NCBI GenBank assembly: GCA_964413715.1
Contig: CAYPSN010000004.1
Location: 7,501 to 71,500, forward strand
DNA from: an uncultured Candidatus Saccharibacteria bacterium
GTDB lineage: Bacteria; Patescibacteriota; Saccharimonadia; CAILAD01; JADZBC01
Length of the DNA stretch: 64,000 nucleotides
Reading direction: 5' to 3'
Position numbers and translations under genes: made by a program. Shown in pieces: positions 6,090 to 61,334 of the stretch. How positions within the stretch are numbered: position 1 is the first letter of the stretch; each line of letters starts with the position of its first letter. The notes under the pieces were generated by a model, which was given only the letters and a program-made list of their open reading frames with translations, made no database searches and was not told the origin of the DNA.

Positions 6090-6165
6090 CAGGGTGTGGC
6101 GCAGTAGGTAGCGCGTACGGCTGGGGGCCGTGAGGTCGCAGGTTCAAGTCCTGTCACCCTGACCA
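6090..6165 (+). tRNA. tRNA-Pro, anticodon GGG, CCA encoded
   Basis: Hand-folded 76 nt cloverleaf: acceptor CAGGGTG/CACCCTG, D-stem GCGC/GCGC, anticodon stem TACGG/CCGTG with loop cTGGGgg (U33, G37), T-stem GCAGG/CCTGT, T-loop TTCAAGT, discriminator A, CCA. The minus-strand ORF 6023..6229 ('GLEPAT..') is its translation shadow. Confidence 0.85.
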
Positions 6166-12962: not shown

Positions 12963-13378
12963 AGCTACCAGCCGAAATTAAGGTTTTTTGCGACGGTGGT
13001 TCACGCGGTAATCCAGGACCAGCAGCAGCAGGCGTAGTAATAACTACAACAGATGATAAAGTCTTGCTCGAAGTAAATAAATACTTAGGTATACGTACAA
13101 ATAATTACGCAGAGTATCAAGCGGTTATATTGGCGCTTGAGACAATTTTCGAGCATGGAGTCGAGCAGGCTAATTTTTACCTGGACAGCGAGCTGGTTAC
13201 GAAGCAGCTCAACGGCGAATACCGCGTGAAGCACCCCGACATGCAGCCACTTTACCTTCGGGTGCAAGAGCTTGTGGGCGTGGTGGGGGCTCACAAAGTG
13301 CGTTTTGTCCACGTGCGTAGAGAGTTTAATAAGCTCGCCGATGCACAGGTCAATAAGTGTCTCGACGAGCAGATTTAG
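12959..13378 (+). CDS. rnhA: Ribonuclease HI
   Basis: 'IKVFCDGGSRGNPGPAAAGVVI...NNYAEYQAVILAL' carries the RNase H catalytic D/E motifs. The start is chosen at the ATG overlapping the uppP stop (ATGA). Confidence 0.8.
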   Translation: MKLPAEIKVFCDGGSRGNPGPAAAGVVITTTDDKVLLEVNKYLGIRTNNYAEYQAVILALETIFEHGVEQANFYLDSELVTKQLNGEYRVKHPDMQPLYLRVQELVGVVGAHKVRFVHVRREFNKLADAQVNKCLDEQI

Positions 13379-13381
13379 ACG

Positions 13382-13410
13382 TCGACAAATAGGCCATATT
13401 ATGGTAGAAT
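13382..13410 (+). promoter_or_regulatory. Putative promoter of RNase P RNA: -35 TCGACA, 17 nt spacer, extended -10 TGgTAGAAT
   Basis: tcgaca at 13382-13387; tggtagaat at 13402-13410. Confidence 0.4.
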
Positions 13411-13417
13411 ATTGATC

Positions 13418-13850
13418 TAGCTAGTTAATGTGCGATCGCTCCCTTCCGAGGGAGAGGAAAGTCCGAACAGCATAGAGCAGAGTGGTTGCTAACGGCAACC
13501 GGGGGCAACCCTAGGGAAAGTGCCACAGAGACAATACCGCCCCTCACCATTTTGTATAGTTACTGGTTATAGACTTGTTCTGAGCGTAAGTGTATGAAAT
13601 GGTGAGGGGTAAGGGTGAAAAGAGTGCGGTAAAAGCGCACAGCATGCGTGGGTGACCACGTGTGGAGGTAAACCCCACTTGCTGCAAGACTATGGGCCCA
13701 GCCATTTGGCAGAGCTGCTCGCTCTTTATGGGTTTGTCGCACGATCTGCCTTTACCGGCAGACGCGGGCGTTGTTATGACGCATGAGATAGATGATCGCT
13801 AGCTTCTTTATCGAAGCAAAACAGAATTCGGCTTATACGTTATCTAGCTA
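13418..13850 (+). ncRNA. rnpB: RNase P RNA (bacterial type)
   Basis: 5' P4 strand 'GAGGAAAGTCCGaac' at about 13454-13468. Conserved core 'CATAGAGCAGAGTGGTTGCTAACGGCAACCGGGGGCAACCCTAGGGAAAGTGCCACAGAGACAATACCGCC' (compare E. coli M1 'CAUAGGGCAGGUGCCAGGUAACGCCUGGGGGGGAAACCCACGACCAGUGCAACAGAGAGCAAACCGCC'). 3' P4 strand 'ACAGAATTCGGCTTAT' at 13821-13836 pairs with the 5' strand and leaves the conserved bulged U. No protein ORF is present; the minus-strand ORF 13560..13742 is spurious. Confidence 0.85.
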
Positions 13851-13857
13851 GGCAAAG

Positions 13858-13890
13858 TGCCCAACCCTAATAGGAGTGTTGGGCTTTTTG
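13858..13890 (+). terminator. Rho-independent terminator after rnpB
   Basis: 'gcccaac cctaataggagt gttgggc ttttt'. Confidence 0.6.
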
Positions 13891-13918
13891 TATGCTAGAA
13901 TAGAGCAAGAAGCAACTA

Positions 13919-15327
13919 TGAAAAAACACAGCGAACTCGCTTTTAGTTTAATACTCGTGCCGATTGATTATCTTATGATGATTCTTGGCTTTGTTGCAGC
14001 GTATTTTTATCGAGCCGGCAGCTCTAAGCCGCTTGCCTATAACATTGGTGGCTATACGTACTTAAAATACATCCTCATTTTGCTGCCAATCTGGGTGTTG
14101 ATCTTTGCAATTTTGGGCTTATACTCGCTCGAAAGTACCCGTCGTCGTATTGATGAGATTGTGAAGGTCTTCATAGCAAGCGCCTGCAGCGTAATGGCCT
14201 TGGTAGTCTTGGACTTTTTCAATGCTCAGCCACTTTTTCCTTCGAAAAGTATCGTAATTTATGGCTTTGCCTTTTCCGTCGTGTTAGTTGTGGCGGCACG
14301 TTTGCTGGTAAGTGCCATTCAGCGACTGCTGTTTAACTACGGCATTGGTGTGCACCAGGCATTAGTTGTTGGTCCTCAGAAGGTGGTTGCCAATCTGAAA
14401 AACGGTCTTGGTAAGGGCTTTGCGCTCGTTAATGACCAGGTTGACATTGGGGACTACCGCAGTGTTGATGTAGAACAGCTTAAAAAAATCCAAGCCCAAC
14501 ATCATCTCGATGAGCTGATCCATGTACAAACGGGCGGTAATAGAGACGTTGAGATAATTGGTTTTTGTGAGAGTCGACAAATTGCCTATCGATTTGTGCC
14601 GAGCATTGTAGGCTTGTTGAATGCTAACGTCCAAACATCGCTTTACGGCGGGGTTCCAGTGCTGGAGATACGTACAACTCCACTAGAAGGTTGGGGTAGA
14701 ATTGTAAAAAGAATAATTGATGTGATTATTGCAACGTTTGGCCTCATTGTACTGAGTCCGCTGTTTGCCGTACTCGCTATTTTAACCAAGATAATCGATC
14801 CGGGTCCAATTTTTTACCCTCATCGACGCTTAGCTCGCAATGGTAAAAAGATTAACATTTATAAGTTCCGTTCTATGAAGGCTGAGTATTCGGATGGTGG
14901 AAAGTTTGCCCACAAGAGCCCTGAAGAAATTTTGGCAAGCTTTGGTGATCCAAAGATTGTCGAGGAGTTTCGTAAGACGCAGAAAGTTAAGAATGACCCA
15001 AGGGTTAGTGTAATTGGTAAGTTTACGCGCAAAACCAGCATTGATGAATTACCGCAGCTGTTCAATGTGCTTAAAGGTGATTTAAGCTTAGTCGGCCCGA
15101 GGCCAATTATCGAGGCGGAGCTCGAACGATATGGAGAAATGGGCGGCAAGTTTTTGCACGTTAAACCTGGTTTAACCGGCCTCTGGCAGGTCTCTGGTCG
15201 TAATGATGTGGGTTACAAGGAGCGGGTTGAGCTTGATATATATTATGTAGAAAACTGGAGCTTATGGCTGGACTTGGTGATTTTATGGCGAACAATTGGG
15301 GTGGTGGTACGTGGCCGGGGCTACTAA
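13919..15327 (+). CDS. Polyprenyl-phosphate sugar phosphotransferase (WbaP/EPS 'bacterial sugar transferase' family), the initiating enzyme of a glycan pathway
   Basis: N-terminal TM helices plus the C-terminal signature 'DELPQLFNVLKGDLSLVGPRP'. The start is taken at ATG 13919 because the 13876 ATG lies inside the rnpB terminator. Confidence 0.8.
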
Positions 15328-26341: not shown

Positions 26342-26729
26342 GGGGCTGATCAGCTTCGACGTTGGAATCTTGAAATATAACTGCAGGTCGCCTAATCGAC
26401 GTTACAGATTAAACCCAATAAGTGTAAACACACTCGTTAGCAAAGTAAAAGCTGCTTTTCGCATGCCAAGCTTTGCGCCAGCTTTCGCTTAATTGATGAA
26501 AGCCGTTTTCGTAGCTGACGTCAGATACGCTACAAGACGTCACTTTATCTGACTGCCTAATGGTCGTTCTGTCCGATTGTTGTTAAGACAAAGAACAGAA
26601 AAGTGTTGCGTGCGTTTCGCTTACTTATAGCGCGCAAACCTTTTGAAACAAAGCTCAAGTAAGCTAAGCCTGTAGTAGGTTATATAGATGGACTAGCGGA
26701 CCAGGGTGCGATTCCCTGCAGCTCCACCA
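26342..26729 (+). ncRNA. ssrA: tmRNA (SsrA)
   Basis: 5' end 'GGGGCTGATCAGCTTCGACGTTGG' matches the tmRNA 5' consensus (E. coli GGGGCUGAUUCUGGAUUCGACGGG). 3' end has T-arm 'cAGGGtgcgattCCCTg', acceptor strand 'CAGCTCC', then A-CCA. The 7 bp acceptor stem includes the G3:U70 alanine identity pair. Candidate tag ORF '(A)AFRMPSFAPAFA' ends at TAA 26490-26492. The structure is bracketed by a promoter and a terminator and contains no long ORF. Confidence 0.8.
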
Positions 26730-38795: not shown

Positions 38796-40856
38796 CTACT
38801 GGAGTTTGCTCGTAAGAATCCTTTGACCGCTCAGTAAGTACGCAGTATTGTCTTTAACTATGAAAGAAGTAGTCTTCGTGGAGCTTGGCAAGGCAAACTC
38901 TTTCGTAAACTTTGGCGTATCATCACCGATGTCGAGCGACACAATGCCTTGCTTGCTGTTCGTTAGCGCATAGAGCGTATCGTTGCTGCCGAGGGCAAGC
39001 AGCGTGAGTCCTGCAATTGAACGGGGTAGCTTGCTGACAGCTATGCTCTCACCAATACCATTGCTAAATAGTTTTAAATCTCTCGAAGCATTGGCTACTA
39101 GGATTGATCCGTTGACGGCTAAGCCGGTGGCCGAGCTAATACTGACGTCATTGGATCGCTTGATGTAGCTTGAGCTGGCGCTGAAACCAACCGAAGTGGG
39201 GCTGTGACGATATATTTGATTATTTTCAGGAGAGAGTATGTAGAGATTGCCAATGTAACTGGCGATGGCGTTTCCATTTGACCAATCACCGGCACTAAGC
39301 TGCACCTGCTTAAGGCTTTTGCCTGGGCTATACTGCCATACGCTTGGCTCTGAAGTTAATATATAGAGTGTCGAGCCACTTGATGAGGTGGTGGCTGCAA
39401 CTGCTTTCTTGAGCGACGAGTCTTTTGCTACCTGAGTGTAGGACTTTTTGGCAGTATCAATCTGATATAGACTGCCGGAATTAGTATCAACGGAGTAGAG
39501 TCGGTCGTCAATTTGCGTTATAAAATTTGCTTTAAAACCTGAAATCGATGAGAAATCTACAACAACATCGGGTTTAAGCCTGGTGATGTTGTTCAGTTTA
39601 TCTTCGATATCGCTCAAGCGTTGATTGAGATTATCAAGACTTGCAGCTTGCTGCGAGGCCAGGTAGGTATCGTCTTTTTTGACGCGAGCAATCTGGGCTG
39701 GTGTGTATTCTTTGCGTATGTAGGCGATTTTCGTCTTTGCTGCAGCGACTGAAGCCTGACTTGGTTCTGACTTGCCAAGGCTCAGTTGAGCTTCGGCGCT
39801 TTCAGTAAGGGCAATAGCCTCCTTATAGGAGGTTACGAGGTTCTTGCGATTGTAATTATTGTTTGAAGCAAACATATAGCCGCCAATTAGGACAGCAACA
39901 ATCGTGAGCGCAATAATCAAGGCACGCTTTGGATTTGGGTTAATATGATTGGTCCAGAGCTTGTTCCAGAAGTTTTTACTCTTGTCCTTCACGCCTGGTG
40001 CTAACGAATGTTTCACCCAATGATGACCTCGCCCTAAAGTAGTCTTCAGGCTACCAGCAGCTTTGCTGGCTGTAGGGGCTAGGGCTCCTTTGAGGCTATC
40101 AATTTTTGTCTTTGGTTTGCCTACCATGGCAGTTTCGGGTTCGTGTTCTAGGGGTTGATCGGCTGCGCTATCCCAGTTCGTTAGCTCTACCGCTAGGGCG
40201 GCACAGCGGGCGGCGTTTTGGTCGTTTTTCAGAAGAGCTTTGAGCTTTTGGGCGGTGGAAGTTGGGGAGTTGTCTTGAATAATGCTATTAAGTGTATTCG
40301 TTTCAAACTCAAACATAACTGCTGGAGTAGCAAAAAACAGCTTGTCGGCCTCGTGGAGGCTGCCTTCGGCTACACCCTGAAATACTTTCGCTTGATTCTT
40401 GCTGTCAAAGAGCCCGCTTGCTAGGTCAATGATGGATTTTTTGCGATACAATCGCGCATGGGCTTTGCCACAGGAGGTAAGATAGAGCTCAGACTGGTTG
40501 ATGACGGCGATTACGGCATGGATGTCGCTAAGCTGTTTCCCATGGTGCGATGCCTTAAGCTGCGTTATCTGCTTGTTAAGTACTGCAATGGCTTTTTCAA
40601 ACCGGTTCTCTGCTTCAGCTGTGTATTTTTTATTGTAATATTCCTCGCCAATCGTTCTGATTACCATATCGACAACTTGACTAGCCAGACTGTCCTTGGC
40701 CAGCACTTCAATAACGATATAGAGGCTGCCTAGCTGGTTGTCTTGCTCGATTGGTGGCTCAAAGTGGTAGGAGAAGGCGAGACCAGGGGTGGTGCTTGGC
40801 TGTGATGCCGTGTATGGCAAAAGCTTGCCGACTCGGTGGAGAAAAAGAGGATTCAT
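38796..40856 (-). CDS. Hypothetical bitopic membrane protein: a cytoplasmic N-terminal domain of about 330 aa, one TM, and an extracellular C-terminal beta-rich (propeller-like) domain of about 340 aa
   Basis: Central TM 'ALIIALTIVAVLIGGYMFA'. C-terminal repeats such as 'LYSVDTNSGSLYQID', 'LYILTSEPSVWQYS', 'LYILSPENNQIYRHS'. No family recognised. Confidence 0.4.
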   Translation of the reverse strand: MNPLFLHRVGKLLPYTASQPSTTPGLAFSYHFEPPIEQDNQLGSLYIVIEVLAKDSLASQVVDMVIRTIGEEYYNKKYTAEAENRFEKAIAVLNKQITQLKASHHGKQLSDIHAVIAVINQSELYLTSCGKAHARLYRKKSIIDLASGLFDSKNQAKVFQGVAEGSLHEADKLFFATPAVMFEFETNTLNSIIQDNSPTSTAQKLKALLKNDQNAARCAALAVELTNWDSAADQPLEHEPETAMVGKPKTKIDSLKGALAPTASKAAGSLKTTLGRGHHWVKHSLAPGVKDKSKNFWNKLWTNHINPNPKRALIIALTIVAVLIGGYMFASNNNYNRKNLVTSYKEAIALTESAEAQLSLGKSEPSQASVAAAKTKIAYIRKEYTPAQIARVKKDDTYLASQQAASLDNLNQRLSDIEDKLNNITRLKPDVVVDFSSISGFKANFITQIDDRLYSVDTNSGSLYQIDTAKKSYTQVAKDSSLKKAVAATTSSSGSTLYILTSEPSVWQYSPGKSLKQVQLSAGDWSNGNAIASYIGNLYILSPENNQIYRHSPTSVGFSASSSYIKRSNDVSISSATGLAVNGSILVANASRDLKLFSNGIGESIAVSKLPRSIAGLTLLALGSNDTLYALTNSKQGIVSLDIGDDTPKFTKEFALPSSTKTTSFIVKDNTAYLLSGQRILTSKLQ

Positions 40857-40961
40857 ATCTTGGATTATCTTAAAGCTTAAGCTATAGCAGTAGCATACCA
40901 TTTTTTACAGTGCTTAACCAGGTAGACGCTGATATAATAATAGGTATGAAGAGGGTGGAGA

Positions 40962-47778: not shown

Positions 47779-48219
47779 TTGAGAAAACCACCTAAATCTG
47801 CGATAATATCAAGCAATATGCAGTTAATGAATAAGATAAAAAAGGGAATGCTTGGTGCAGGATTACTGGTGGTTAGCGCTGTTTCGACTACCATTGTTTT
47901 GTCATTGCTATTCTTAGCTTCACCTAACTCCATCGGCCCAGCTGGGGTGACCATCTGGTTTGTGTTACTTCTGGCGGCACTCACGTCTAGTTTAATGCTA
48001 TTGCTTTTGGCCAACAAAAAGCGACGCGGCAAACTTATTACGCCGGCTGAATTTAAAGCTACTTTTAAATTGGCCCTGGTTCCAGCTGCGGCTGTGACGC
48101 TAGTATTGGCTCTGAGCAGCTTAGGTTCGCTTGGAGCAGTCGATTTGCTTCTGATTGCCGGTGTCACTTTGGTTGTGGGTGTATATTTCTTTACGACTGA
48201 TCGGAGACAGACACTATGA
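47779..48219 (+). CDS. Small polytopic membrane protein, translationally coupled (ATGA) to pheS
   Basis: Three to four hydrophobic helices ('GLLVVSAVSTTIVLSLLFLA', 'VTIWFVLLLAALTSSLMLLLLA', 'LALVPAAAVTLVLALSSLG', 'LLLIAGVTLVVGVYFF'). The start may be an internal ATG (MQLM or MNKI). The antisense ORF 47706..48167 is judged spurious. Confidence 0.45.
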   Translation: MRKPPKSAIISSNMQLMNKIKKGMLGAGLLVVSAVSTTIVLSLLFLASPNSIGPAGVTIWFVLLLAALTSSLMLLLLANKKRRGKLITPAEFKATFKLALVPAAAVTLVLALSSLGSLGAVDLLLIAGVTLVVGVYFFTTDRRQTL

Positions 48220-49196
48220 AGCCAGCAGATATTATTTCACGAGCTCAGCAGGAGGCGTCGAATGCAAAGCGACAGAACGACCTACAGTTAGTGAAGGCCC
48301 AGTATTTGGGCAAGAAAAGCGTACTACAGGCAGAAATGAAGGCACTAGGCGGTCTCTCGTCTGAAGAGCGCAAGAAGAAGGGGCGAGAGCTCAATCAGCT
48401 TAAGCAAGAGCTGGAAAGGCTTTTTACTGAGCGTGAAAAATCTCTGATTATTGAACTCGATAGCCTACCGCCGATGGACCTTTCGACACCAGGAATCGGA
48501 ACGCAGTATGGCCATGCCCATCCGGTTACACTCGTAATGGAAGAGCTGTACGCAGCTTTTACACGACTTGGTTTTGCGATTGTAGATAGTAATGAGATCG
48601 AAGACGATTGGCATAATTTTGAAGCACTCAATATGCCACCGCATCATCCAGCACGGGATATGCAAGATACTTTTTATATTAAAGACAAGCAGGCAACCAA
48701 TACAATTTTGCCGCGAACTCATACATCTGGTATGCAAGTACGTTTCATGAAAGAAAATAAGCCGCCTTTTAAGATCATTGTGCCGGGTAAAGTTTTTCGT
48801 AACGAAGACGAAGACAAGACTCACTTGTGGTCATTCACACAGGTTGAAGGTCTGGTGGTGGGCGAGGGTGTCTCGGTAGCGCACCTTAAAGGTACGTTAC
48901 TAGCAGTAATGCAGGATCTGCTTGGCGAAGAAACCGAAATTCGCTTGCGACCAAGCTATTTTCCGTACACCGAGCCCTCGATTGAGATAGATGTGAGTTA
49001 CAAAGGCGAGTGGTTGGAGTTACTGGGGGCAGGCATGGTGCACCCTAAGGTGCTGCAGAATGCGGGGATTGATCCGGAGATTTACACTGGCTTTGCTTTT
49101 GGGCTTGGCCCTGAGCGCATTGCCATGGTGAAGTATGGCATAACTGATTTACGGCATTTTTGGCGACCGAATCTGTCCTACCTGGAGCAATTTTAA
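48216..49196 (+). CDS. pheS: Phenylalanine--tRNA ligase alpha subunit
   Basis: Class II motifs: 'FRNE' (motif 2 region), 'RPSYFPYTEPSIEIDV', and 'GAGMVHP...GFAFGLGPERIAM' (motif 3). Confidence 0.9.
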   Translation: MKPADIISRAQQEASNAKRQNDLQLVKAQYLGKKSVLQAEMKALGGLSSEERKKKGRELNQLKQELERLFTEREKSLIIELDSLPPMDLSTPGIGTQYGHAHPVTLVMEELYAAFTRLGFAIVDSNEIEDDWHNFEALNMPPHHPARDMQDTFYIKDKQATNTILPRTHTSGMQVRFMKENKPPFKIIVPGKVFRNEDEDKTHLWSFTQVEGLVVGEGVSVAHLKGTLLAVMQDLLGEETEIRLRPSYFPYTEPSIEIDVSYKGEWLELLGAGMVHPKVLQNAGIDPEIYTGFAFGLGPERIAMVKYGITDLRHFWRPNLSYLEQF

Positions 49197-52009
49197 TGAA
49201 AATATCTGTAAACTCACTTAATTCTTACCTGAAAAACAAGCTTTCAGCTGAACAGATGGTGGAGCGTCTGCTGATGACCGAAGTGGAGGTGGAAGAGATT
49301 ATAACTCCTCATCAGGAGTGGGACGAGCGCATCATTGTGGCGCACGTCGTGACAGTACAGCCGCATCCGGATGCAGACAAGTTACGCTTAGCGCAAGTAG
49401 AAACTGGCAGCGGCAAAGTTGAGGTTGTTTGTGGCGCGCCAAATTTGGCCGAAGGGCAAATGGTGGTGCTGGCGCAAGAAGGTGCAGTTTTGCCAGACGG
49501 TTTAAAAATCAAAGCTAGCAAGCTGCGTGGCGTTATTTCGCACGGCATGCTGTGTTCAGCCAAGGAGCTGGGTATTTCAGACGACCACAACGGTATTCTG
49601 GTTCTGCCAGAAGACTCACCTGTTGGAACAACATTGTGCGACATATGGCAAAAGGGGAATGTCTTGGATATAAAGACGCCTGCAAATAGGTGGGATTACC
49701 TCAGTTTGATCGGTTTGGCTAGGGAAGTCGCAGCCAAAGATAAGGGTAATCAGCTGATTTTGCCTAAATCTAAGCAATTAACATATAAAGACACAGAAAT
49801 TGTAGATGTCAAGGAAAGCGGGGAGTGTAGACGCTTCGTTAGTGTGAAAATGAGGGTAGACAATTCCGTGAAAAGTCCGCAGTGGATTGTGGATAACTTA
49901 GAAGAGAACGGTTTGCGCAGTATTAATCCTGTTGTAGATATTACGAACTTTGTAATGCTCGAAACCGGCCAGCCCTCTCATGCGTATGACGCCAAGAAAA
50001 TCACTGATGGGCTTTGTGTACGCTTTGCCTCCCCTGCCGAAAAACTTACAACATTAGATGACGTAGAACGAACGCTAACCAGTGAGGATCTTGTGATAGC
50101 AGATGGACGTGGTCCAGTGGCACTAGCTGGTGTGATTGGTGGAGCTAACAGCGAAGTCGATACCAGTACAAGCGAAATAATCCTGGAAGTGGCGAATTTT
50201 GATAAAACGCGGGTGCGCAAGGCCGCAATTCGCCATGGGGTACGAACTGAAGCATCGGCTCGATTTGAGCGCTCTCTCCCCTTGCCACTTCCCCTGCAGG
50301 CAGCGGAACGTTTGGTGGATTTATTATGTCAGGTGGCGCAGGCCGAAGTCATTGACTCCCCTGTCGATCAGCTCTATGGTTGGCCCTGGGTACAGCACGT
50401 TGGTTTACGCCTGCGTAAGGCCGAGCGAATATTGGGCGTTAAGTTAGATGAGCGTGAAGTGGTCGATGGCCTCAGTCGACTTGGCTTTGACGTAGAACAC
50501 TTTAGTATTACTAAGGAACTGCGCAAGCATTTGGGAAAACCTTATATCTGGGGTGCGAATTTTAAACAGCATGGAGATACAGGTTTTGACTGCTCTTATC
50601 TGATAGACAGGGTGTATTCGAAAATTGGCGTACGGGTTGGGCACACCGCATTGGGTCAGTATCATCATGGCCGGCCAGTTGAAGTTGGTGATCTGAAGCC
50701 TGGTGATGTAGTGTTTTATGGTGGCAAAATCGAAAATTCAGTAACGGACCACTACTATACGACAGATGATGCCGGTAAGCACACTAAGGTGACATTGCCG
50801 AAGCCACTGGCTGTAGGGCATAACGGAATTTATATAGGTCAAAACAAGGTTATTACCGCTATTCAATACGAGCGAAAGGGTGACGACTGGGTAAAGCGAG
50901 AAAAGCAAGGCGTTTTAGAAGTGCCTCTGAGCGATTTTGTGAACGATCCAACGTATCTTGGCGCACGTCGATACGTGGAGAACTTTAATCATATTCTGGC
51001 AGTAGTGGCACCATGGTGGAGGCTGGACATTCGTAATGAGGAAGATTTGGTGGAAGAAATCGTTAAAATCGTAGGCTATGACGCCATTGCCGCCGAGATC
51101 CCTTCCCTGCCGCCAACAAGCTCACACAAGCATCAACTTTTACCAAGCCTGCAAAATCTTAAGAAGGTTATGATAGCCAGCGGCTTACAAGAAATCGTGA
51201 CATATTCATTCATTAGCCAGGCCGCACTCGATGCACTCCAAGACACACGTGAGCATTTGGAAATAGCCAACCCGCTGAGCAGCGAACAGCAGTTTTTGCG
51301 CCGCAGTATGCTGCCTAGCCACCTAAAGGTTATCCAAGACAACCAGGGTTACAGTAAGCAGTTTGGCTGCTTTGAAATAGCCAGAACGTATCAGCCGACT
51401 CAGGACGGTGCGTTACCACAAGAAGAATGGAAGATAGCAATTTTCGCAGTTGGTAAGGACAGCTTGATGCGCGTAAAGGGCGCAGTTGATCTGCTGGCAC
51501 GCCACACGCAACTTGATTATGATGTGAAGCCGACTGATTTGATTAACTTTGTTGCTGGCCGATCGGCCGAACTAAATATAGAGAAACAGAACATCGGCTT
51601 GATTGGTCAAGTCGGCAAAACTCTATTGGCCACCTATGATATTCGCCATGAAGTGAGTGTGGCCGAAATAATCTTATCGGAGAACATCTTTACTCATTTA
51701 CCTAATGCTGTGGTGGACTTACCACCCTATCAGCTTATTCAGCGCGACATGTCGTTTATTTGTAATCAAGACATTCTATGGCAAGAGGTTGAATCGTTAC
51801 TCAAGCAAGCAGGCAACGTCTGGTCGGTTCAGTATCTGGGAGTATACGAGGATGACAAGCTAGTGCGGGATAAGCGAAAAAACATTACTTGCCGCATGAA
51901 GCTCGATTTAGGCGCCAATCCAACTGCCGAACAGATTCAAGAGGCAATGGGTAAACTGGGTAATAAGCTGGTGCGAGGTTTGCCGGCAGGAAATATTGTA
52001 ATCAACTAG
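49196..52009 (+). CDS. pheT: Phenylalanine--tRNA ligase beta subunit carrying an inserted NlpC/P60 papain-like peptidase domain in the B5 region
   Basis: 'MKISVNSLNSYL' N-terminus (TAATG overlap with pheS). tRNA-binding, B3/4 and B5 ('LSRLGFDVEHF') domains, and the C-terminal catalytic-like and anticodon-binding regions ('WRLDIRNEEDLVEEIVKIVGYD'). Inserted at about 50503-51000: 'KPYIWGANFKQHGDTGFDCSYLIDRVYSKIGVRVGHTALGQY...GDLKPGDVVFYGG...GHNGIYIGQNKVITAI'. Confidence 0.85.
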   Translation: MKISVNSLNSYLKNKLSAEQMVERLLMTEVEVEEIITPHQEWDERIIVAHVVTVQPHPDADKLRLAQVETGSGKVEVVCGAPNLAEGQMVVLAQEGAVLPDGLKIKASKLRGVISHGMLCSAKELGISDDHNGILVLPEDSPVGTTLCDIWQKGNVLDIKTPANRWDYLSLIGLAREVAAKDKGNQLILPKSKQLTYKDTEIVDVKESGECRRFVSVKMRVDNSVKSPQWIVDNLEENGLRSINPVVDITNFVMLETGQPSHAYDAKKITDGLCVRFASPAEKLTTLDDVERTLTSEDLVIADGRGPVALAGVIGGANSEVDTSTSEIILEVANFDKTRVRKAAIRHGVRTEASARFERSLPLPLPLQAAERLVDLLCQVAQAEVIDSPVDQLYGWPWVQHVGLRLRKAERILGVKLDEREVVDGLSRLGFDVEHFSITKELRKHLGKPYIWGANFKQHGDTGFDCSYLIDRVYSKIGVRVGHTALGQYHHGRPVEVGDLKPGDVVFYGGKIENSVTDHYYTTDDAGKHTKVTLPKPLAVGHNGIYIGQNKVITAIQYERKGDDWVKREKQGVLEVPLSDFVNDPTYLGARRYVENFNHILAVVAPWWRLDIRNEEDLVEEIVKIVGYDAIAAEIPSLPPTSSHKHQLLPSLQNLKKVMIASGLQEIVTYSFISQAALDALQDTREHLEIANPLSSEQQFLRRSMLPSHLKVIQDNQGYSKQFGCFEIARTYQPTQDGALPQEEWKIAIFAVGKDSLMRVKGAVDLLARHTQLDYDVKPTDLINFVAGRSAELNIEKQNIGLIGQVGKTLLATYDIRHEVSVAEIILSENIFTHLPNAVVDLPPYQLIQRDMSFICNQDILWQEVESLLKQAGNVWSVQYLGVYEDDKLVRDKRKNITCRMKLDLGANPTAEQIQEAMGKLGNKLVRGLPAGNIVIN

Positions 52010-52049: not shown

Positions 52050-53510
52050 ATGAGGCGGCACGAAAACCACATTACTAATACCGCGGGGCAGCCTAGGAAA
52101 CTAGAGATTCTGGCCTGGACGGTTGGTGGACTTATTCTAGGGCTTGCAGCTGTCAATTTACTATTGTCGGCAGCTTTGACGGGGGTGATTTATCCTGGTG
52201 TTCGGCTAGCAGACCGTAGTGTAGCGCTAAAAACCCGAGCTGAGGCTACTACATTATTACGAGGAGTGAATGCTTCGCACAAAATCACCATACGCATTGG
52301 CGAACGGACGTACAGGGTGAGCAGTGAGCAACTAGGGGCGAAGCGTGATGACGCGGTGAGTGTTGATACTGCTTATCAAGTTGGTCGCACAACACCCTTC
52401 CCGCTCGTTGGTATAGCGCAAGCATTGCGTTCTAACCCAGCTCGTTTCTCCTACCGACTTGATGCTGCAAAGCTTGAGAGGTTTACCCAGCAACTTACAA
52501 ACGATATCGGACGCTCCCCTGTGAACGCCAAGATCGAGGTGGTAAATGGCGAATTCGTAACCACTCCTGACAAAGATGGCGTGGCGATTGATCAAACCAA
52601 ATTAACCCAAACTCTCCAAGCCGCTTTGGGTGAAGGTGCCGATAAGTCGGTTGCGCTTGAGCCTACGTCGGTTAAAGCCGATGTAGTGTTGGCCGCAACC
52701 GCGCCGGTAGTCGCCGAAGCCAAGTCTATTTCGCAGCAATCTTTGACGTTTACATACCAAGATCGAACATTCAGGCCAGATGCAGCTACAATTGCAAGTT
52801 GGCTCGTATTCCCAGCTGAAAAAAATAGCGCATCAGGAAAAGTCGACCTACATGCAGCAATTGATGACGCCAAGATTCGTGGCTATTTGCAATCGCTTGC
52901 TAATGAAATTAACGTAGCGCCAGTTACCAAGAAGGTGACGATTAAAAACGGCGTTAGTCAGACCGACCAGGAGGGACAGGATGGCTTGGCGGTTAACCAA
53001 GATGACGCCTTCACTGCTGTTAAAAAGGCCCTAACTGATAAGGCAGCTCTGGCGTACACCGTTACCACTCGTCCGGTAGCCTATAAGACCCAATACAATC
53101 GTGTCACGACTCTCGACATTGGTCGATATATTGAGATCAATCTGTCCACCCAGCAACTATGGGTATATCAGGATAACCAGGTTATCTATACCTCGCCAAT
53201 CACTAGCGGCGCTACCGGTATGGGCTTCCCTACGGTAACGGGCCTGTTTAGTATCTATTCGAAAGCCCAGAACATTTGGCTGGATGGTAGAGCCTATGGT
53301 GATCGCTACAACTATCGCGTCTTAGTTGATTATTGGATGCCTTTTTATGGTGGATTTGGGCTGCATGATGCTTGGCGCTGGCGCAGTACATTCGGCGGAG
53401 CTGATTATTACTATAATGGCAGCCACGGCTGTGTTAATCTGCCACTCGCGACAGCTGCATTTATTTACAATTGGGCGGAGATTGGTACGCCTGTTTGGGT
53501 GCATACCTAA
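52050..53510 (+). CDS. Membrane-anchored L,D-transpeptidase (YkuD-domain) family protein
   Basis: N-terminal TM 'ILAWTVGGLILGLAAVNLLLSAAL'. C-terminal catalytic domain 'GFPTVTGLFSIYSKAQN...GFGLHDAWRW...NGSHGCVNLP' (His/Cys dyad). Confidence 0.75.
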   Translation: MRRHENHITNTAGQPRKLEILAWTVGGLILGLAAVNLLLSAALTGVIYPGVRLADRSVALKTRAEATTLLRGVNASHKITIRIGERTYRVSSEQLGAKRDDAVSVDTAYQVGRTTPFPLVGIAQALRSNPARFSYRLDAAKLERFTQQLTNDIGRSPVNAKIEVVNGEFVTTPDKDGVAIDQTKLTQTLQAALGEGADKSVALEPTSVKADVVLAATAPVVAEAKSISQQSLTFTYQDRTFRPDAATIASWLVFPAEKNSASGKVDLHAAIDDAKIRGYLQSLANEINVAPVTKKVTIKNGVSQTDQEGQDGLAVNQDDAFTAVKKALTDKAALAYTVTTRPVAYKTQYNRVTTLDIGRYIEINLSTQQLWVYQDNQVIYTSPITSGATGMGFPTVTGLFSIYSKAQNIWLDGRAYGDRYNYRVLVDYWMPFYGGFGLHDAWRWRSTFGGADYYYNGSHGCVNLPLATAAFIYNWAEIGTPVWVHT

Positions 53511-54035: not shown

Positions 54036-56570
54036 ATGGAATCACAAAATCAACTCTTTATCCTTTTTACTAGTCTCCTCGCCGTAGGGTTTTTGGGGTT
54101 ACTTGGTTTTGTATGCTTTCTGGTGTATCGCAAAATGGTTCGTCGCACGAAAGACATTGAACGCAGTTTAAAGCTCGTTCCGTTACAAATTAAACTACCC
54201 CCAGCCGAGGCCAGTGAAGCTGGTGGGCGCGACGTCCGCGAGCTGTTTAAGGAGAACATCTCAAAGGCCGAAGGGATTTTTAACTTACTCTCGGGTATCA
54301 CCGCTAATAAATCGCTCGTTTACGGCAATCGCTATGTCAGTTTCGAAATCATTGCCGATGGAACGATGATATATTTTTACGTTGCAGTGCCGGTGACGCT
54401 TTTATCGACCGTACAGAAGGCTTTGGTGTCTGGTTATCCAACTGTCCAGATTGAACAGGTGGATGATCCGAATATTTTTTCGCAAAAGAGTAAGCTTGAA
54501 GGCATAGCTGGCGGAGAGTTGGCGCTTGCCAACGAATCATACTTCCCCATAGCGACGTATAAGAATCGTGACAGTGATCCGTTGGCGGGGGTGCTTAGCG
54601 CGCTTTCGGCGCTCAAAGAGGGTGAAGGCGCGGGCATTCAAATTATGGTGCGTCCAGCGGACAAAAAATGGGCCAAGAATGCTCAGAAAAAAGCCAAAGC
54701 CTTGCTCGACCCCGAGGAGATTGCCAAGCGCAAATATACAGGTAAAAAGTTGTTACGTGACATCGCCATGGCCCCAGTGAAGCAACCAGGTTACTCCAAG
54801 AAGCTACAAGATGGCACCGTCCGCGAAGATCAAAAATTCCAGCCCGATGCCATTGATCAAAAAATGAGCCAACTGGTTGAAGAAAAGTACAGTGTGCCGG
54901 CTTTTGAAACTATGGTTCGGATAATTGCAAGCTCCGATGACCCACATCGCTCGCGAGCTACCGTTCAGTCAGTGCTGACTGGCTTTGCTCAGTTAGCGCT
55001 GCCAAACTCAAACCAGTTCAAGTTCGAACAAGCGAAGAGCCCTCAGCAGCTAGCAACAGATTTTATCTTCCGGTTCTTTCCTGCTGGCAAGAACAAGACC
55101 GTGCTGAACTCAACTGAGCTGGCTGGCTTGTTTCATTTTCCCGGTGAAGACATGCAGGTTTCAACGCCGGTGGTGCGTAAAGGTGCCCGCGAGGTGGCAG
55201 CACCACCCGACCTACCAAACGAAGGGCTCATCTTGGGGAGCAACATGTATCGCGGTCAAGAAACAGTGGTGCGTCTAACCGACGATGACCGCCGCCGCCA
55301 CGTTTACATAATTGGTCAAACAGGTACAGGTAAATCCATTTTTTTAGAGAACTGTATTGTACAAGATTTACACATGGGCAAGGGCCTCTGCTGCATGGAT
55401 CCACACGGTGAACTGGCAGAAAAGATTATGGCAAAAATTCCACCCCATCGACTTAAGGACGTGGTTTACTTTAATCCTGCCGACACCGATTACCCCCTCG
55501 GCTTTAATCTGCTTGAGTTTGATCCAGCGCACCCTGAGCAAAAGGACTTTCTGGTTCTTGAAGCTATCAATATGTTCTACAAGCTTTATGACCCTAAGGG
55601 CCAAGGTTTTGTTGGGCCGATGTTTGTGGATTGGTTCCGCAACGCTGCCCTAACGGTTATGTCTGACCCAGAGGGTGGGACGCTTATTGAAGTACCAAAG
55701 CTATTCACTAATGACGATTACTTAAAGCAAAAGTTCCGTCATGTAAAAGACCCTATCGTGCAGGAATTCTGGACAGGGCAAATGGCGCAAACCAGCGAGC
55801 ATAGCAAGAGTGAAATGCTTGGCTACTTTACTTCAAAATTCGGGGACTTTGCGAATAACGAGATTATGCGCAATATCATTGGTCAAAAGCACTCTAGCTT
55901 TAACCTGAGAGAAATTATGGATAATCGAAAAATTCTCCTCGTTAATCTGTCGAAGGGTTTACTCGGAGATATGAACTCAAAGATTTTGGGTATTGTTTTT
56001 ATCATTAAGTTTCAAATGGCCGCCATGAGTAGGTCTGACATGGACGAGAAAGATCGACAAGATTTTAGTCTGTACATTGATGAATTCCAGAACTATGCTA
56101 CTGATTCGATCTCAACCATTCTGTCTGAAGCACGTAAGTATCGCTTGAGCATGATCATGGCCAACCAGTTTATCTCGCAGCTCGAGGAGCCAATTCGCGA
56201 TGCTGTATTCGGTAACGTCGGTAATATGGTCGGATTCCGTGTTGGTCCCGAGGATGCGGAGTTTATGGCCAAGCAGTTTGCGCCACAATTCGATAAAGAT
56301 GACATTATTAACACTCCAAACTTCAATGCAGTAGCTCGCATTATCAATCGCGGTGTAGTTACACCGTCATTTTCACTCAAAGAAATATTTCCTCCAATTG
56401 GGGTAAAGACACCAGGTATTTACGAGCAGATGGTTCAGATTTCTCGCCAAAACTATGCGCGCCCTAAAGCCGAAGTAGCTGCCGAAATTGCCAAGGCACT
56501 CGAGGTCGTGCCATCTACGCCTCAGCCGGAACCGGGCAAAATGCCTATTAGTACTGGCCGACAGGGCTAG
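54036..56570 (+). CDS. Type IV secretion-type AAA ATPase (VirB4-like, possibly with a fused VirB3-like N-terminal TM, or a VirD4/TraG-like coupling protein)
   Basis: N-terminal TM 'LFILFTSLLAVGFLGLLGFVCFLVY'. Central Walker A 'IIGQTGTGKSIF' followed by 'MDPHGEL'. Walker B 'LYIDEFQNY'. 844 aa with the P-loop at mid-protein, as in VirB4. Confidence 0.5.
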   Translation: MESQNQLFILFTSLLAVGFLGLLGFVCFLVYRKMVRRTKDIERSLKLVPLQIKLPPAEASEAGGRDVRELFKENISKAEGIFNLLSGITANKSLVYGNRYVSFEIIADGTMIYFYVAVPVTLLSTVQKALVSGYPTVQIEQVDDPNIFSQKSKLEGIAGGELALANESYFPIATYKNRDSDPLAGVLSALSALKEGEGAGIQIMVRPADKKWAKNAQKKAKALLDPEEIAKRKYTGKKLLRDIAMAPVKQPGYSKKLQDGTVREDQKFQPDAIDQKMSQLVEEKYSVPAFETMVRIIASSDDPHRSRATVQSVLTGFAQLALPNSNQFKFEQAKSPQQLATDFIFRFFPAGKNKTVLNSTELAGLFHFPGEDMQVSTPVVRKGAREVAAPPDLPNEGLILGSNMYRGQETVVRLTDDDRRRHVYIIGQTGTGKSIFLENCIVQDLHMGKGLCCMDPHGELAEKIMAKIPPHRLKDVVYFNPADTDYPLGFNLLEFDPAHPEQKDFLVLEAINMFYKLYDPKGQGFVGPMFVDWFRNAALTVMSDPEGGTLIEVPKLFTNDDYLKQKFRHVKDPIVQEFWTGQMAQTSEHSKSEMLGYFTSKFGDFANNEIMRNIIGQKHSSFNLREIMDNRKILLVNLSKGLLGDMNSKILGIVFIIKFQMAAMSRSDMDEKDRQDFSLYIDEFQNYATDSISTILSEARKYRLSMIMANQFISQLEEPIRDAVFGNVGNMVGFRVGPEDAEFMAKQFAPQFDKDDIINTPNFNAVARIINRGVVTPSFSLKEIFPPIGVKTPGIYEQMVQISRQNYARPKAEVAAEIAKALEVVPSTPQPEPGKMPISTGRQG

Positions 56571-56652: not shown

Positions 56653-58746
<2,094 letters not shown>

Positions 58747-58754
58747 GAGTAGAT

Positions 58755-61334
58755 ATGGCAGACATTAAGGACAACAACATTCCAGAACCAGACAAATCAT
58801 CTGCTGCTGAGCAGGCCAATCAGGCTATGGTAGAAAGCGGTATTGGCCAGGTAGAGTTTCGTACTATCGAAACCGAAATGGAGAAGAGCTACCTTGACTA
58901 CTCCATGAGTGTTATTGTGTCACGTGCTTTGCCTGATGTTCGCGATGGGCTTAAGCCAGTTCATCGCCGTATTCTGTATGTCATGAACAATCTTGGGTTG
59001 CGTCATGGCTCGAAGTTCCGTAAGAGTGCTACCGTGGTTGGTGACGTAATGGGTAGCTACCACCCTCATGGTGACTCGGCAATTTACGATGCCATGGCTC
59101 GCATGGCACAGGATTTCTCGATGCGCTATATGTTGGTCGATGGCCAGGGTAACTTTGGTTCGATCGACGGCGATATGCCGGCTGCCATGCGTTACACCGA
59201 AGCGCGCATGCAAAAACTAACCGAAGAGCTGCTCGTTGATATCGACAAAGACACGGTAGACTTCCAGCCCAACTACGATGGAAACAAGCGAGAGCCAACC
59301 GTGCTGCCGGCCAAGCTTCCTAATTTACTCCTCAATGGCGTGCAGGGAATCGCGGTCGGTATGGCCACCAACATCCCCCCTCACAATCTAGGTGAGATTG
59401 TCGATGCGACGGTGCATCTAATTGATAACCCTGAAGCTACGGTTGCGGACCTGATTGGTATTGTGAAAGGTCCTGATTTTCCAGGTGGTGGAATTATTTT
59501 TGACGACGGCGGTATTGCGCAGGCATACGGCACAGGTAAAGGCAGCATCATTATGCGAGCTGATGCCGAAATTGTAGAAGACAAAAAGGGTAAACAGCGC
59601 ATCGTGGTTACTTCGATCCCCTTCCAGGTAAATAAATCGACGTTGGTGCAAAAAATCGCTGACTTGTATCACGAAAAGAAGCTCATTGGCATAGCTGACG
59701 TGCGCGACGAATCGTCGGACCGTGTTGGTGTGCGAATCATCATTGATCTCAAGAAAGACGCTTACGCACAGAAGCTATTAAACCAGCTCTTTAGGCTTAC
59801 GCCTTTACAGACAACCTTCCACGTAAACATGCTGGCCTTGGTCGATGGCATTCAGCCACGTGTTTTGAATTTAGAAATGGTACTCCGTCATTACCTCGAT
59901 CATCGCAAAGTTGTAGTACGTCGCCGTACGGAATTTGAACTTAAAAAGGCCCAGGCTCGAGCCCACATTCTAGAAGGACTGCGCATTGCACTTGATCAGA
60001 TCGATAAGGTGATCTCGACGATTCGTAATAGTGCCACGAAGGAAGAAGCTCTAACCAATTTAGTCAAAAACTTCAAACTAACTGAAATTCAAGCCAAAGC
60101 AATTCTAGACATGCAGCTGCGTACTCTGGCCGGACTTGAACGCAAGAAAATTGAAGATGAATATACGGCCTTGATGGCACTGATAAAAGAGCTGGAAACC
60201 ATCTTGTCTGACGAAGTCAACATTATGGCGGTAATTCGTGAAGAACTCATTGAGCTGAAAGAAAAGCATGGCGACGAGCGTCGCACTAAGGTAGTCAAGT
60301 CGGCGATTGGCAAATTCTCCGACGAAGATTTGATTCCAAACGAAGAAGTAATTATTACTCTGACCGCAGGTAATTACATTAAGCGTATGCCATCGAACAC
60401 CTACACGGCGCAAGCCAGGGGTGGTAAGGGAAAAATCGGTATGGCTACCAAAGAAGAAGACGTTGTGGAGCACATGGTACAGACCAATAACCACGATACG
60501 GTACTCTTTTTCACCTCATTGGGGCGTGCCTTTAAACTAAAAGCGCACGAAGTACCAGCAGCTTCGCGAACGGCCAAAGGTCAGGCAATTGTGAACTTGT
60601 TGAATCTTAGCCCCGAAGAGCGGGTCACTTCCCTGCTCACACTGGAAAAAGACAACTCAGCTAAATTCCTATTTATGACTACCAAATGTGGGGTAATTAA
60701 GAAAACCGCAATTGCTGAATACCAAAATGTTCGCTCAAGTGGGCTGATTGCCATCAAGCTCGATAAGGGTGACGAGCTAAAGTGGGTAAAGAAAACGCAT
60801 GGTAGTGACGACATCATCATCTCGACTGCTATGGCGCAGGCGATTCGGTTTAAAGAAGCTGATGCACGGCCAATGGGCCGAGCAACCCGCGGTGTACGTG
60901 GTATTCGGTTGCGCAGTGGCGACACGGTTGTTGGCATGGATGTATTGGGCGTGGGCGACGACGGCATGATGCTGGTCGTCATGGAGAACGGCTACGGCAA
61001 GATAACCAAAACTGCCCAATTTAGTCCTCATAATCGAGGTGGGGTTGGTATTAAGGCCGGTGTGGTAAGCACGAAGACCGGCAAGGTAGTTGACGTACGA
61101 GTGCTCGAAGACATTGGCCAAGATGTGCTTATTATCTCCAAACAAGGTCAGGTGATTCGTTTGCACGCCAATAAGATTCCAGTTATCAGTCGTGCTACTC
61201 AAGGCGTACGCATCATGCGCATGGCCGAGGCCGACAGCGTGGCGTCTGTTACCCTACTGCCAGGCGGAATAGTTGGAGACACTGCTGATAGCGCTGAAGC
61301 TACAGCTGAGCCGACTGAAGAGGTCAAAGACTAA
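58755..61334 (+). CDS. gyrA: DNA gyrase subunit A
   Basis: '[30 protein letters not shown]' (active-site Tyr region), 859 aa, immediately downstream of gyrB. Confidence 0.95.

Follow-up and report, generated by a model that had tools for sequence, protein, structure and literature searches.

A complete NlpC/P60 papain-like domain is inserted into the beta subunit of phenylalanyl-tRNA synthetase (PheRS) of an uncultured Candidatus Saccharibacteria bacterium, where it sits at the tip of the hairpin of the B5 domain, a conclusion that we hold with high confidence. The gene concerned, pheT, lies on a stretch of 64,000 nucleotides (nt) of the contig CAYPSN010000004.1 (assembly GCA_964413715.1, positions 7,501 to 71,500 of the forward strand), which is called the window here and whose first letter is position 1 throughout. 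Aminoacyl-tRNA synthetases (aaRSs) are among the most conserved proteins, and the domains added to them usually serve tRNA binding or editing. Here, the added domain is of the cell-wall peptidase type, and it is present in PheRS across a whole class of ultra-small, host-dependent epibionts. Three features taken together deserve attention, namely that the insert is conserved at least as well as the catalytic machinery of the enzyme, that it exists in interchangeable, recombining versions, and that its degenerate copies are never deleted.

The host gene is a housekeeping one, the pheT of a genome of Saccharibacteria type (Patescibacteria), and all the canonical PheT domains are intact in it. It occupies 49196-52009 on the plus strand and encodes 937 amino acids (aa), starting from the ATG at 49196 inside the open reading frame (ORF) 49160-52009 (+), and its orthologues share the N-terminal 'MKISV'. 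The gene for the alpha subunit, pheS (48216-49196, +; 326 aa in the ORF list; Pfam tRNA-synt_2d at 319 bits, together with Phe_tRNA-synt_N), precedes it, the pheS stop codon overlapping the pheT start by 1 nt, and the pheS-pheT order is kept in nearly all related loci. The protein scores 627.8 bits against the NCBIfam equivalog TIGR00472 (pheT_bact; cut-off 402.65), its Pfam domains tRNA_bind, B3_4, B5, CLM and FDX-ACB follow the full B1-B8 order, and PDB PheRS beta chains match it at E = 5e-106. The AlphaFold model of the entire beta subunit has a mean predicted local distance difference test (pLDDT) of 90.4, and a Foldseek search with the full-length model, which confirmed PheRS beta and that alone, retrieved 4p71 (E = 1.8e-68), 1pys and 3pco.

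Against the solved PheRS beta chains, the window PheT aligns in two blocks, residues 1-429 and 603-879, and in comparison with the P. aeruginosa protein (4p71) its residues 430-602 (~173 residues) replace the 13 chain residues 433-445. The Pfam B5 match (PF03484) is likewise split in two, the second stretch (residues 595-628) corresponding to model positions 34-67. According to the DSSP assignment of the AlphaFold model, the insert lies between the strands 432-435 and 600-605, so that it sits at the tip of the B5 beta-hairpin; we take B5 to be a winged-helix-like domain, of which the interrupted hairpin would presumably be the 'wing'. On the plus strand, the N-terminal half of B5 (residues ~392-436; 50369-50503) closes with the first of these strands, the canonical alignment ending at residues 429-435; the insert follows (residues 437-599; 50504-50992), with the junctions 'HF|SITKE' and 'NFNH|IL'; and the C-terminal half (residues 600-630; 50993-51085) resumes with the second strand and 'APWWRLD', the PDB alignment starting again at residue 603. 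An earlier note on this DNA, made from its letters, had claimed an NlpC/P60 module inside the B5 domain of PheT, and this claim is borne out. The motifs and codons quoted there hold to within 5 nt: 'LSRLGFDVEHF', put at about 50476-50502, lies at 50471-50503, 'WRLDIRNEEDL' begins at 51017, and the codons named for the catalytic Cys and His are exactly those given below.

Pfam NLPC_P60 (PF00877) recognises the insert itself on residues 447-515, scoring 44.8 bits when the full PheT is scanned and 50.3 bits when only the insert is (cut-off 23); the domain is of the MEROPS C40 type. The match covers model positions 1-63 only, because the domain is broken up, between the 'PGDVVF' strand and the strand of His542, by a 27-residue beta-hairpin (sub-insert 1, residues 512-538; 50729-50809, +), which is visible in the alignment and as the DSSP strands 519-523 and 529-533; a second sub-insert (residues 558-572; 50867-50911, +) lengthens the hairpin of the last strands. 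The papain-like alpha+beta fold is nevertheless whole, its N-terminal helix and its last strand both being present, and a profile of 29 inserts aligns with 7cfl over the full length (E = 3e-21), the terminal 'ARR' strand included. The predicted catalytic Cys466 (TGC, 50591-50593, +), at the N-terminus of the helix 466-475, is part of an 'FDCS' that aligns with the 'FDCS' of 7cfl and 8v3w, and the predicted catalytic His542 (CAT, 50819-50821, +), at the start of the strand 542-548, is part of 'GHNGIYIG', which fits the family pattern H.G.Y.G. The canonical third triad residue, the His of '..IHA..', is present in 7cfl ('MIHAS'), whereas the window has Thr554 (50855-50857, +) at this position, outside the polar set of His, Asn, Gln, Glu and Asp. 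By fold as well as by sequence, the closest relatives of the insert are peptidoglycan D,L-endopeptidases; weak cross-hits to LRAT acyltransferases also occur in relatives.

A search of 5.8 billion proteins yielded the 120 top-scoring PheT clusters (the best 120 clusters), all of which carry the insert; these proteins have ~870-950 aa, range from 100% down to 42% identity and, where named, are from Saccharibacteria. Among contigs taken from one genome per species, at least 49 insert loci are named Saccharibacteria, Saccharimonadia, Saccharimonadales, 'Patescibacteria group' or Howlettbacteria, the other carriers being one 'Paceibacterota' genome (L053) and one 'Nanoarchaeia' contig. When the search was started from the divergent carrier P0247, ~17 more insert-bearing clusters were found, and most other Patescibacteria PheTs (750-840 aa) are without the insert. 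The insert is class-wide in Saccharimonadia and ancestral to the PheT of this type, it occurs as a patchy minority in other Patescibacteria, and it offers a clean lineage marker. The earlier note had called such an insert unusual, which is right for bacteria in general and does not apply within Saccharibacteria, where it is lineage-wide and normal.

In an exhaustive search of 1.84 billion representatives, PheT-embedded copies were the only matches to the whole insert, with 24 clusters at E <= 1e-30, and ordinary NlpC/P60 proteins matched just its first ~76 residues. The carriers have derived traits in common, namely the same B5 site, 'GA' instead of 'GG', and 'DCS[YL]', which suggests a single origin of the PheT insert. 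No specific donor was identified among the free-standing relatives (P0261, P0232, P0211 and loci of Clostridia, Listeria and Bacteroidales), which are secreted NlpC/P60 proteins of the ordinary kind, with an identity of only 30-43% to the insert, and which end in the same 'GA[RK]RY' motif. P0267, considered as a stand-alone homologue of the whole insert, proved to be a PheT fragment.

Some carriers depart from the common pattern. The non-Saccharibacteria Patescibacteria PheTs L053 (4984-7392), P0334 and P0335 (~802-814 aa) have an intact Cys/His/His insert and are without the N-terminal tRNA_bind (B2) domain. Two insert-bearing PheTs outside Saccharimonadia, P0271 (1006 aa) and P0272 (1049 aa), exceed the others in length by 70-110 residues and may hold larger or additional insertions; P0272 also has an LRAT-family cross-hit. 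The contig labelled 'Candidatus Nanoarchaeia archaeon' (L021, DATIHE010000064.1) carries a Saccharibacteria-type pheT with the insert, at 56% identity, and mis-binning is probable.

An assembly chimera, against which the earlier note had warned, is excluded, because 6 contigs encode the identical protein, and orthologues with the insert make up more than 100 clusters, drawn from NCBI, JGI, ENA and Logan. No break was seen in GC content or skew; with the insert in 120/120 of the best clusters, a recent foreign insertion is also rejected. An intein-like element was considered and rejected as well, since there is no Hint or endonuclease Pfam match, the fold is purely NlpC/P60, and the junctions have no intein residues.

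Cys and His are both present in 108 of the best 120 clusters (Cys, counted alone, in 109), and the catalytic-site motifs PY, DCS, PGD..F and H.G.Y.G are likewise kept in 108/120, across backbones that are ~35-45% identical, so the catalytic pair named in the earlier note is maintained in the orthologues. In the clusters with both residues, inserts compared in pairs are on average 51% identical, the values elsewhere in PheT being 52% for B1-B2, 60% for B3/4, 36% for CLM and 32% for B8. In deep comparisons within one cassette type (see below), the insert is the best-conserved PheT region, with 55% identity (B3/4 49%, C-terminal domains 22-30%). The insert is therefore under strong purifying selection, and conserved at least as much as the essential domains. 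The 12 clusters without Cys and/or His form at least four dissimilar groups on the backbone tree; their degenerate inserts are kept at ~110-130 residues, and none has been deleted. Here, the identity of the insert is 34-36%, that of the rest of the protein 61-67%, and for the degenerate pair P0113 and P0110 the ratio of nonsynonymous to synonymous divergence (dN/dS) is 0.25 in the insert and 0.09-0.12 in the flanks. Since the identity of the insert falls once Cys or His is lost, the intact state would be under a constraint beyond that of folding, such as catalysis or the binding of a ligand would impose. For PheT the fold probably matters too, since the degenerate domain is kept and constrained.

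According to the two sub-inserts, several cassette architectures could be distinguished: LL in 58 clusters (the window PheT among them), ML in 24, MS in 12, SS in 12, and a degenerate class in 12. Sub-insert 1 defines the 'L' types, and sub-insert 2 is present in LL and ML and absent in MS and SS; both of these variable loops or hairpins lie beside the catalytic strands. The third-triad column across the orthologues holds Gln in 37, His in 23, Glu in 20, Met in 17 and Thr in 14. The non-canonical residues are confined to the LL type, in 28 of its 58 clusters (Met 17, Thr 11), and ML, MS and SS have His, Glu or Gln. The sub-insert 1 motif D518-H519-Y520-Y521 is at least 90% conserved within the LL type; this hairpin (residues 512-538) probably forms part of the wall of the substrate groove, and its D518 or H519 may stand in as the polar partner of His542.

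When the insert columns are left out, the resulting PheT tree does not agree with the distribution of the cassette types. Over all pairs, the identity of same-type inserts follows that of the backbone (from 0.96 down to 0.55 over the backbone-identity bins), and inserts of different type stay at 0.41-0.52 regardless of backbone identity. Nine pairs have backbones at least 80% identical and yet inserts of at most 65%. For example, P0032 and P0078 share 96% identity outside the insert and 58% within it, and the corresponding values, at the protein level, for the intact P0106 and the degenerate P0113 are 93% and 44%; a control pair of the same cassette type has 87% outside and 91% inside. P0106 in fact stands, with its intact cassette, within a group of degenerate copies, and at the protein level the backbones of these are 91-93% identical to its own. 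The sharpest case is that of the syntenic loci L081 and L082, which come from different samples and have ~96% nt identity over 14.8 kb, apart from a block of ~430 nt, the insert, at 60-69%. The synonymous divergence (dS) of the block, 1.63, far exceeds the 0.17 of its flanks (Fisher p = 7e-19), and the dN/dS of the block is 0.27; the breakpoints lie near 'GKPYKWGAN' and 'YLGARRYV'. A raised dS cannot stem from positive selection, and it argues for a long-diverged allele introduced by recombination. L084 and L085 are a second pair with this pattern, on a more diverged background. Sequence comparison thus indicates that at least four old, discrete cassette types move between PheT backbones by homologous recombination, with the breakpoints, as mapped by alignment, in the conserved edge motifs 'GKPY.WGA' and 'GARRY'. 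Consequently, the cassette could be used as a marker of recombination in Saccharibacteria populations. Within the species cluster of the window the cassette is stable, only 1 of the 11 differences between P0001 and P0121 falling in the insert.

Two further observations concern the same material. Phage was considered as the cassette vector and rejected: no close cassette copies were found on viral contigs, which held only distant lysin-type domains at 27-42% identity. A second variable region distinguishes L081 (~13300-14800) from L082, where a PKD-domain, probably surface, protein is at 71-88% nt identity on the ~96% background.

The B3/4 editing domain of the window PheT (residues 211-381; 49826-50338, +; Pfam B3_4 at 192.6 bits) has R241, N251, H262, G315, E331, T351 and A353 at the positions of E. 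coli R244, N254, H265, G318, E334, T354 and A356, which we take to be the PheRS editing residues; the equivalences were counted on a HMMER alignment to 7n8y_B, a Salmonella/E. coli-type chain with E. coli numbering. Among 83 orthologues, N251, H262 and G315 do not vary, and conservation is 90% or more at E331 and A353. With these residues intact, the insert is no substitute for a lost editing site, and the idea that it replaces the editing domain is ruled out.

What, then, could the insert do? In the explanation that we prefer, and to which as a whole we give slightly less than an even chance, it would be an active cytoplasmic cysteine hydrolase of the gamma-D-glutamyl or D,L-endopeptidase kind, acting on a small peptide or a muropeptide-like molecule. 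The PheRS heterotetramer, abundant and constitutive, would be its carrier, and the insert would have no part in aminoacylation or editing. The variable hairpins would determine the specificity for substrate or partner, which we propose as the reason why whole cassettes are exchanged; the folded domain would have a secondary, non-catalytic role in PheT, structural or in binding, which we propose as the reason why purifying selection persists after the loss of Cys or His. Of the two functions offered in the earlier note, a moonlighting peptidoglycan-fragment hydrolase is accordingly the better fit, because the closest folds and sequences are those of peptidoglycan D,L-endopeptidases, and as to function it is a suggestion drawn from that resemblance.

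Several points weigh against this explanation. Peptidoglycan substrates are to our knowledge mostly extracytoplasmic, and we know of no cytoplasmic substrate in organisms of the Saccharibacteria type. Why PheT in particular should be the host is not accounted for. The absence of Cys or His from 12 of the 120 clusters makes catalysis dispensable in some lineages, and active NlpC/P60 enzymes do not usually have the third triad residue seen here, which is Thr in the window and Met in 17 of the clusters. In addition, the mosaic is known from metagenome assemblies, in which path switching between co-occurring strains could occur; this is unlikely here, as the pattern recurs in many sources.

The same losses give some room to a module without catalysis, that is, a structural part of B5 or a surface on which a peptide ligand, a partner protein or the cell envelope could dock, in which Cys and His would be remnants of ligand binding. 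Some NlpC/P60 proteins are without catalytic activity and only bind, an example being RipD, whose model NF033743 is among the matches; the retention of degenerate inserts in at least four dissimilar forms of ~110-130 residues, at a dN/dS of 0.25, and the Thr or Met in 28/58 LL clusters, would be expected of such a module. We regard it as rather unlikely, since Cys, His and all the catalytic-site motifs are held in 108/120 clusters on very divergent backbones, and the drop of the insert to 34-36% identity after their loss, beside 61-67% elsewhere, speaks for an extra constraint on the intact state.

At a similarly low level of confidence, the exchange of cassettes may be put at the centre, the insert being a horizontally exchanged specificity module with a second, ecologically variable job, either on D-amino-acid (muro)peptides of the host or in a Cys-dependent aminoacyl-tRNA proofreading or transfer. 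One possibility is peptide processing by amino-acid-auxotrophic epibionts, with a cassette tuned to the cell-wall chemotype of the host; a new Cys-dependent reaction on aminoacyl-tRNA is the more radical one. If true, this would be the first aaRS with an inserted domain behaving as a recombining, balanced polymorphism.

Chemistry linked to tRNA might also be imagined in a narrower form. The Cys-His site would attack the phenylalanyl, non-cognate or D-aminoacyl ester on tRNAPhe, or the adenylate, and the outcome would be an extra proofreading or deacylase step, or transfer of the aminoacyl group to another acceptor via an acyl-thioester. The domain is always at one position of PheT and at no other in any match, the insert is extremely conserved within a type, and the weak cross-hits to LRAT acyltransferases in relatives also agree with this idea. 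We nevertheless consider it improbable: the B3/4 site is fully intact, Cys and His have been lost repeatedly, and the nearest relatives by fold and sequence cleave peptide bonds. Moreover, cassettes from distant lineages interchange in near-identical backbones; this makes it unlikely that the insert and the synthetase core are tightly co-adapted, and it is hard to square with a site that has to be placed precisely relative to the CCA end. The new editing or deacylase activity raised in the earlier note therefore found no positive support.

About as improbable, and overlapping with the hydrolase explanation, is a conflict or specificity module under balancing selection, which would respond to the peptidoglycan chemotype of the host, to a phage or host inhibitor, or to a toxin. 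The discrete old types, 40-52% identical at any backbone distance, recur in several backbone sub-clades, and the sharply bounded replacement in L081/L082 and the intact cassette of P0106 nested among degenerate ones are what such selection could produce. However, no direct link to any antagonist or host was found, PheRS is cytoplasmic, and neither the stability of the cassette in the species cluster of the window nor the want of close copies on viral contigs favours it; exchange might simply be tolerated in the insert and selected against in the flanks.

That the insert is an artefact, such as an assembly chimera, or a selfish, in-frame, intein-like mobile element has almost no probability left: its patchy distribution outside Saccharimonadia, its constant position within a gene that is essential, where the site is conserved, and its horizontal transfer would suit such an element, but its recurrence on 6 contigs and in many clusters, the even composition, the purely NlpC/P60 fold with no Hint or endonuclease domain and no intein junctions, and the purifying selection all contradict it.

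Both domains were already known, and an aaRS with an inserted hydrolase domain is a known theme. The editing domains of aaRSs (B3/4 of PheRS, CP1 of LeuRS, IleRS and ValRS, INS of ProRS, and N2 of ThrRS) are likewise hydrolases inside a synthetase; the insert differs from them in its unrelated papain-like Cys-His fold and chemistry, in being present beside the canonical PheRS editing site, in being swappable between backbones, and in the loss of its catalytic residues in some lineages. The secreted C40 D,L-endopeptidases compared were C. difficile Acd24020 (7cfl), B. subtilis CwlO/LytE, E. coli MepS/Spr and E. faecium SagA. Unlike these, the insert is inside a cytoplasmic aaRS, without signal peptide or cell-wall-binding repeats, and it has 'WGA' and 'DCSY' where they have 'WGG' and 'DCSG'; the LL-type insert of the window has in addition the Thr at the third triad position and two extra hairpins. 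The gamma-D-glutamyl-L-diamino-acid endopeptidases of the YkfC / dipeptidyl-peptidase VI type (3h41, 3pvq, 3npf, 3m1u) belong to the same family as the insert. YkfC-type enzymes are intracellular; they stand alone and have SH3b domains recognising a free N-terminal L-Ala, whereas the PheT insert has no SH3b. GspSA (2io7, 3a30) and trypanothione synthetase (2vpm) likewise join an ATP-dependent ligase to a cytoplasmic amidase with a papain-like fold, from the wider NlpC/P60-CHAP superfamily.

A full-text literature search retrieved no description of a peptidase domain in PheT, and the evolutionary behaviour of the insert is unusual and, as far as this search shows, unreported. The architecture is implicit in databases, in Pfam domain lists and in names such as 'C40 family peptidase, partial'; the insert accounts for this name, and for 'beta subunit-related protein', on true pheT genes. 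If the insert is active, it would represent a new moonlighting activity of an aaRS and might help to explain what Saccharibacteria do with peptides or cell-wall fragments; an inactive insert would be an unusual case of domain entrenchment in an essential enzyme. Cultured, genetically tractable Saccharibacteria exist, and therefore the function of the insert is directly testable. One such Saccharibacterium is in use (PMC13622651).

Directly downstream of pheT, the window encodes a membrane-anchored L,D-transpeptidase (52050-53510, +; Pfam PG_binding_4 and YkuD). The gene for this enzyme is directly 3' of pheT in 33 of the 41 scorable insert-bearing loci, for example at 8877-10358 in L081, 4769-6238 in L083, 7800-9290 in L085, 5660-7129 in L099 and 5073-6674 in L031, and in Howlettbacteria it overlaps pheT by 8 nt. 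The order pheS-pheT-ldt is thus a conserved arrangement among the insert-bearing loci, and this closeness to the gene of a cell-wall enzyme is at most suggestive of a shared function.

The remaining neighbourhood is of housekeeping kind, with an AddA/UvrD-type helicase-nuclease, RmuC, a class Ib aaRS, a VirD4-like ATPase, gyrB and gyrA. The ATPase gene (54036-56570, +), two genes downstream of pheT and conserved in the syntenic loci, encodes a VirD4/TraG-like type IV coupling protein (T4SS-DNA_transf and TraG-D_C; DUF8128 in relatives), and it is followed by gyrB (56668-58746) and gyrA (58755-61334). Upstream, a small hydrophobic ORF of 146 aa with no Pfam match (47779-48219, +) overlaps the start of pheS with its 3' end, and ORFs of 125-130 aa hold the same position in relatives (L081 4607-4993, L085 3604-3990). 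Farther away, a 700-aa ORF (38796-40901, -) has no Pfam match at E <= 0.001. The window also contains a bacterial class A RNase P RNA (13421-13851, +; 220.9 bits), a transfer-messenger RNA (26342-26729, +; 90.7 bits) and one tRNA (6090-6162, +), each above the Rfam gathering score.

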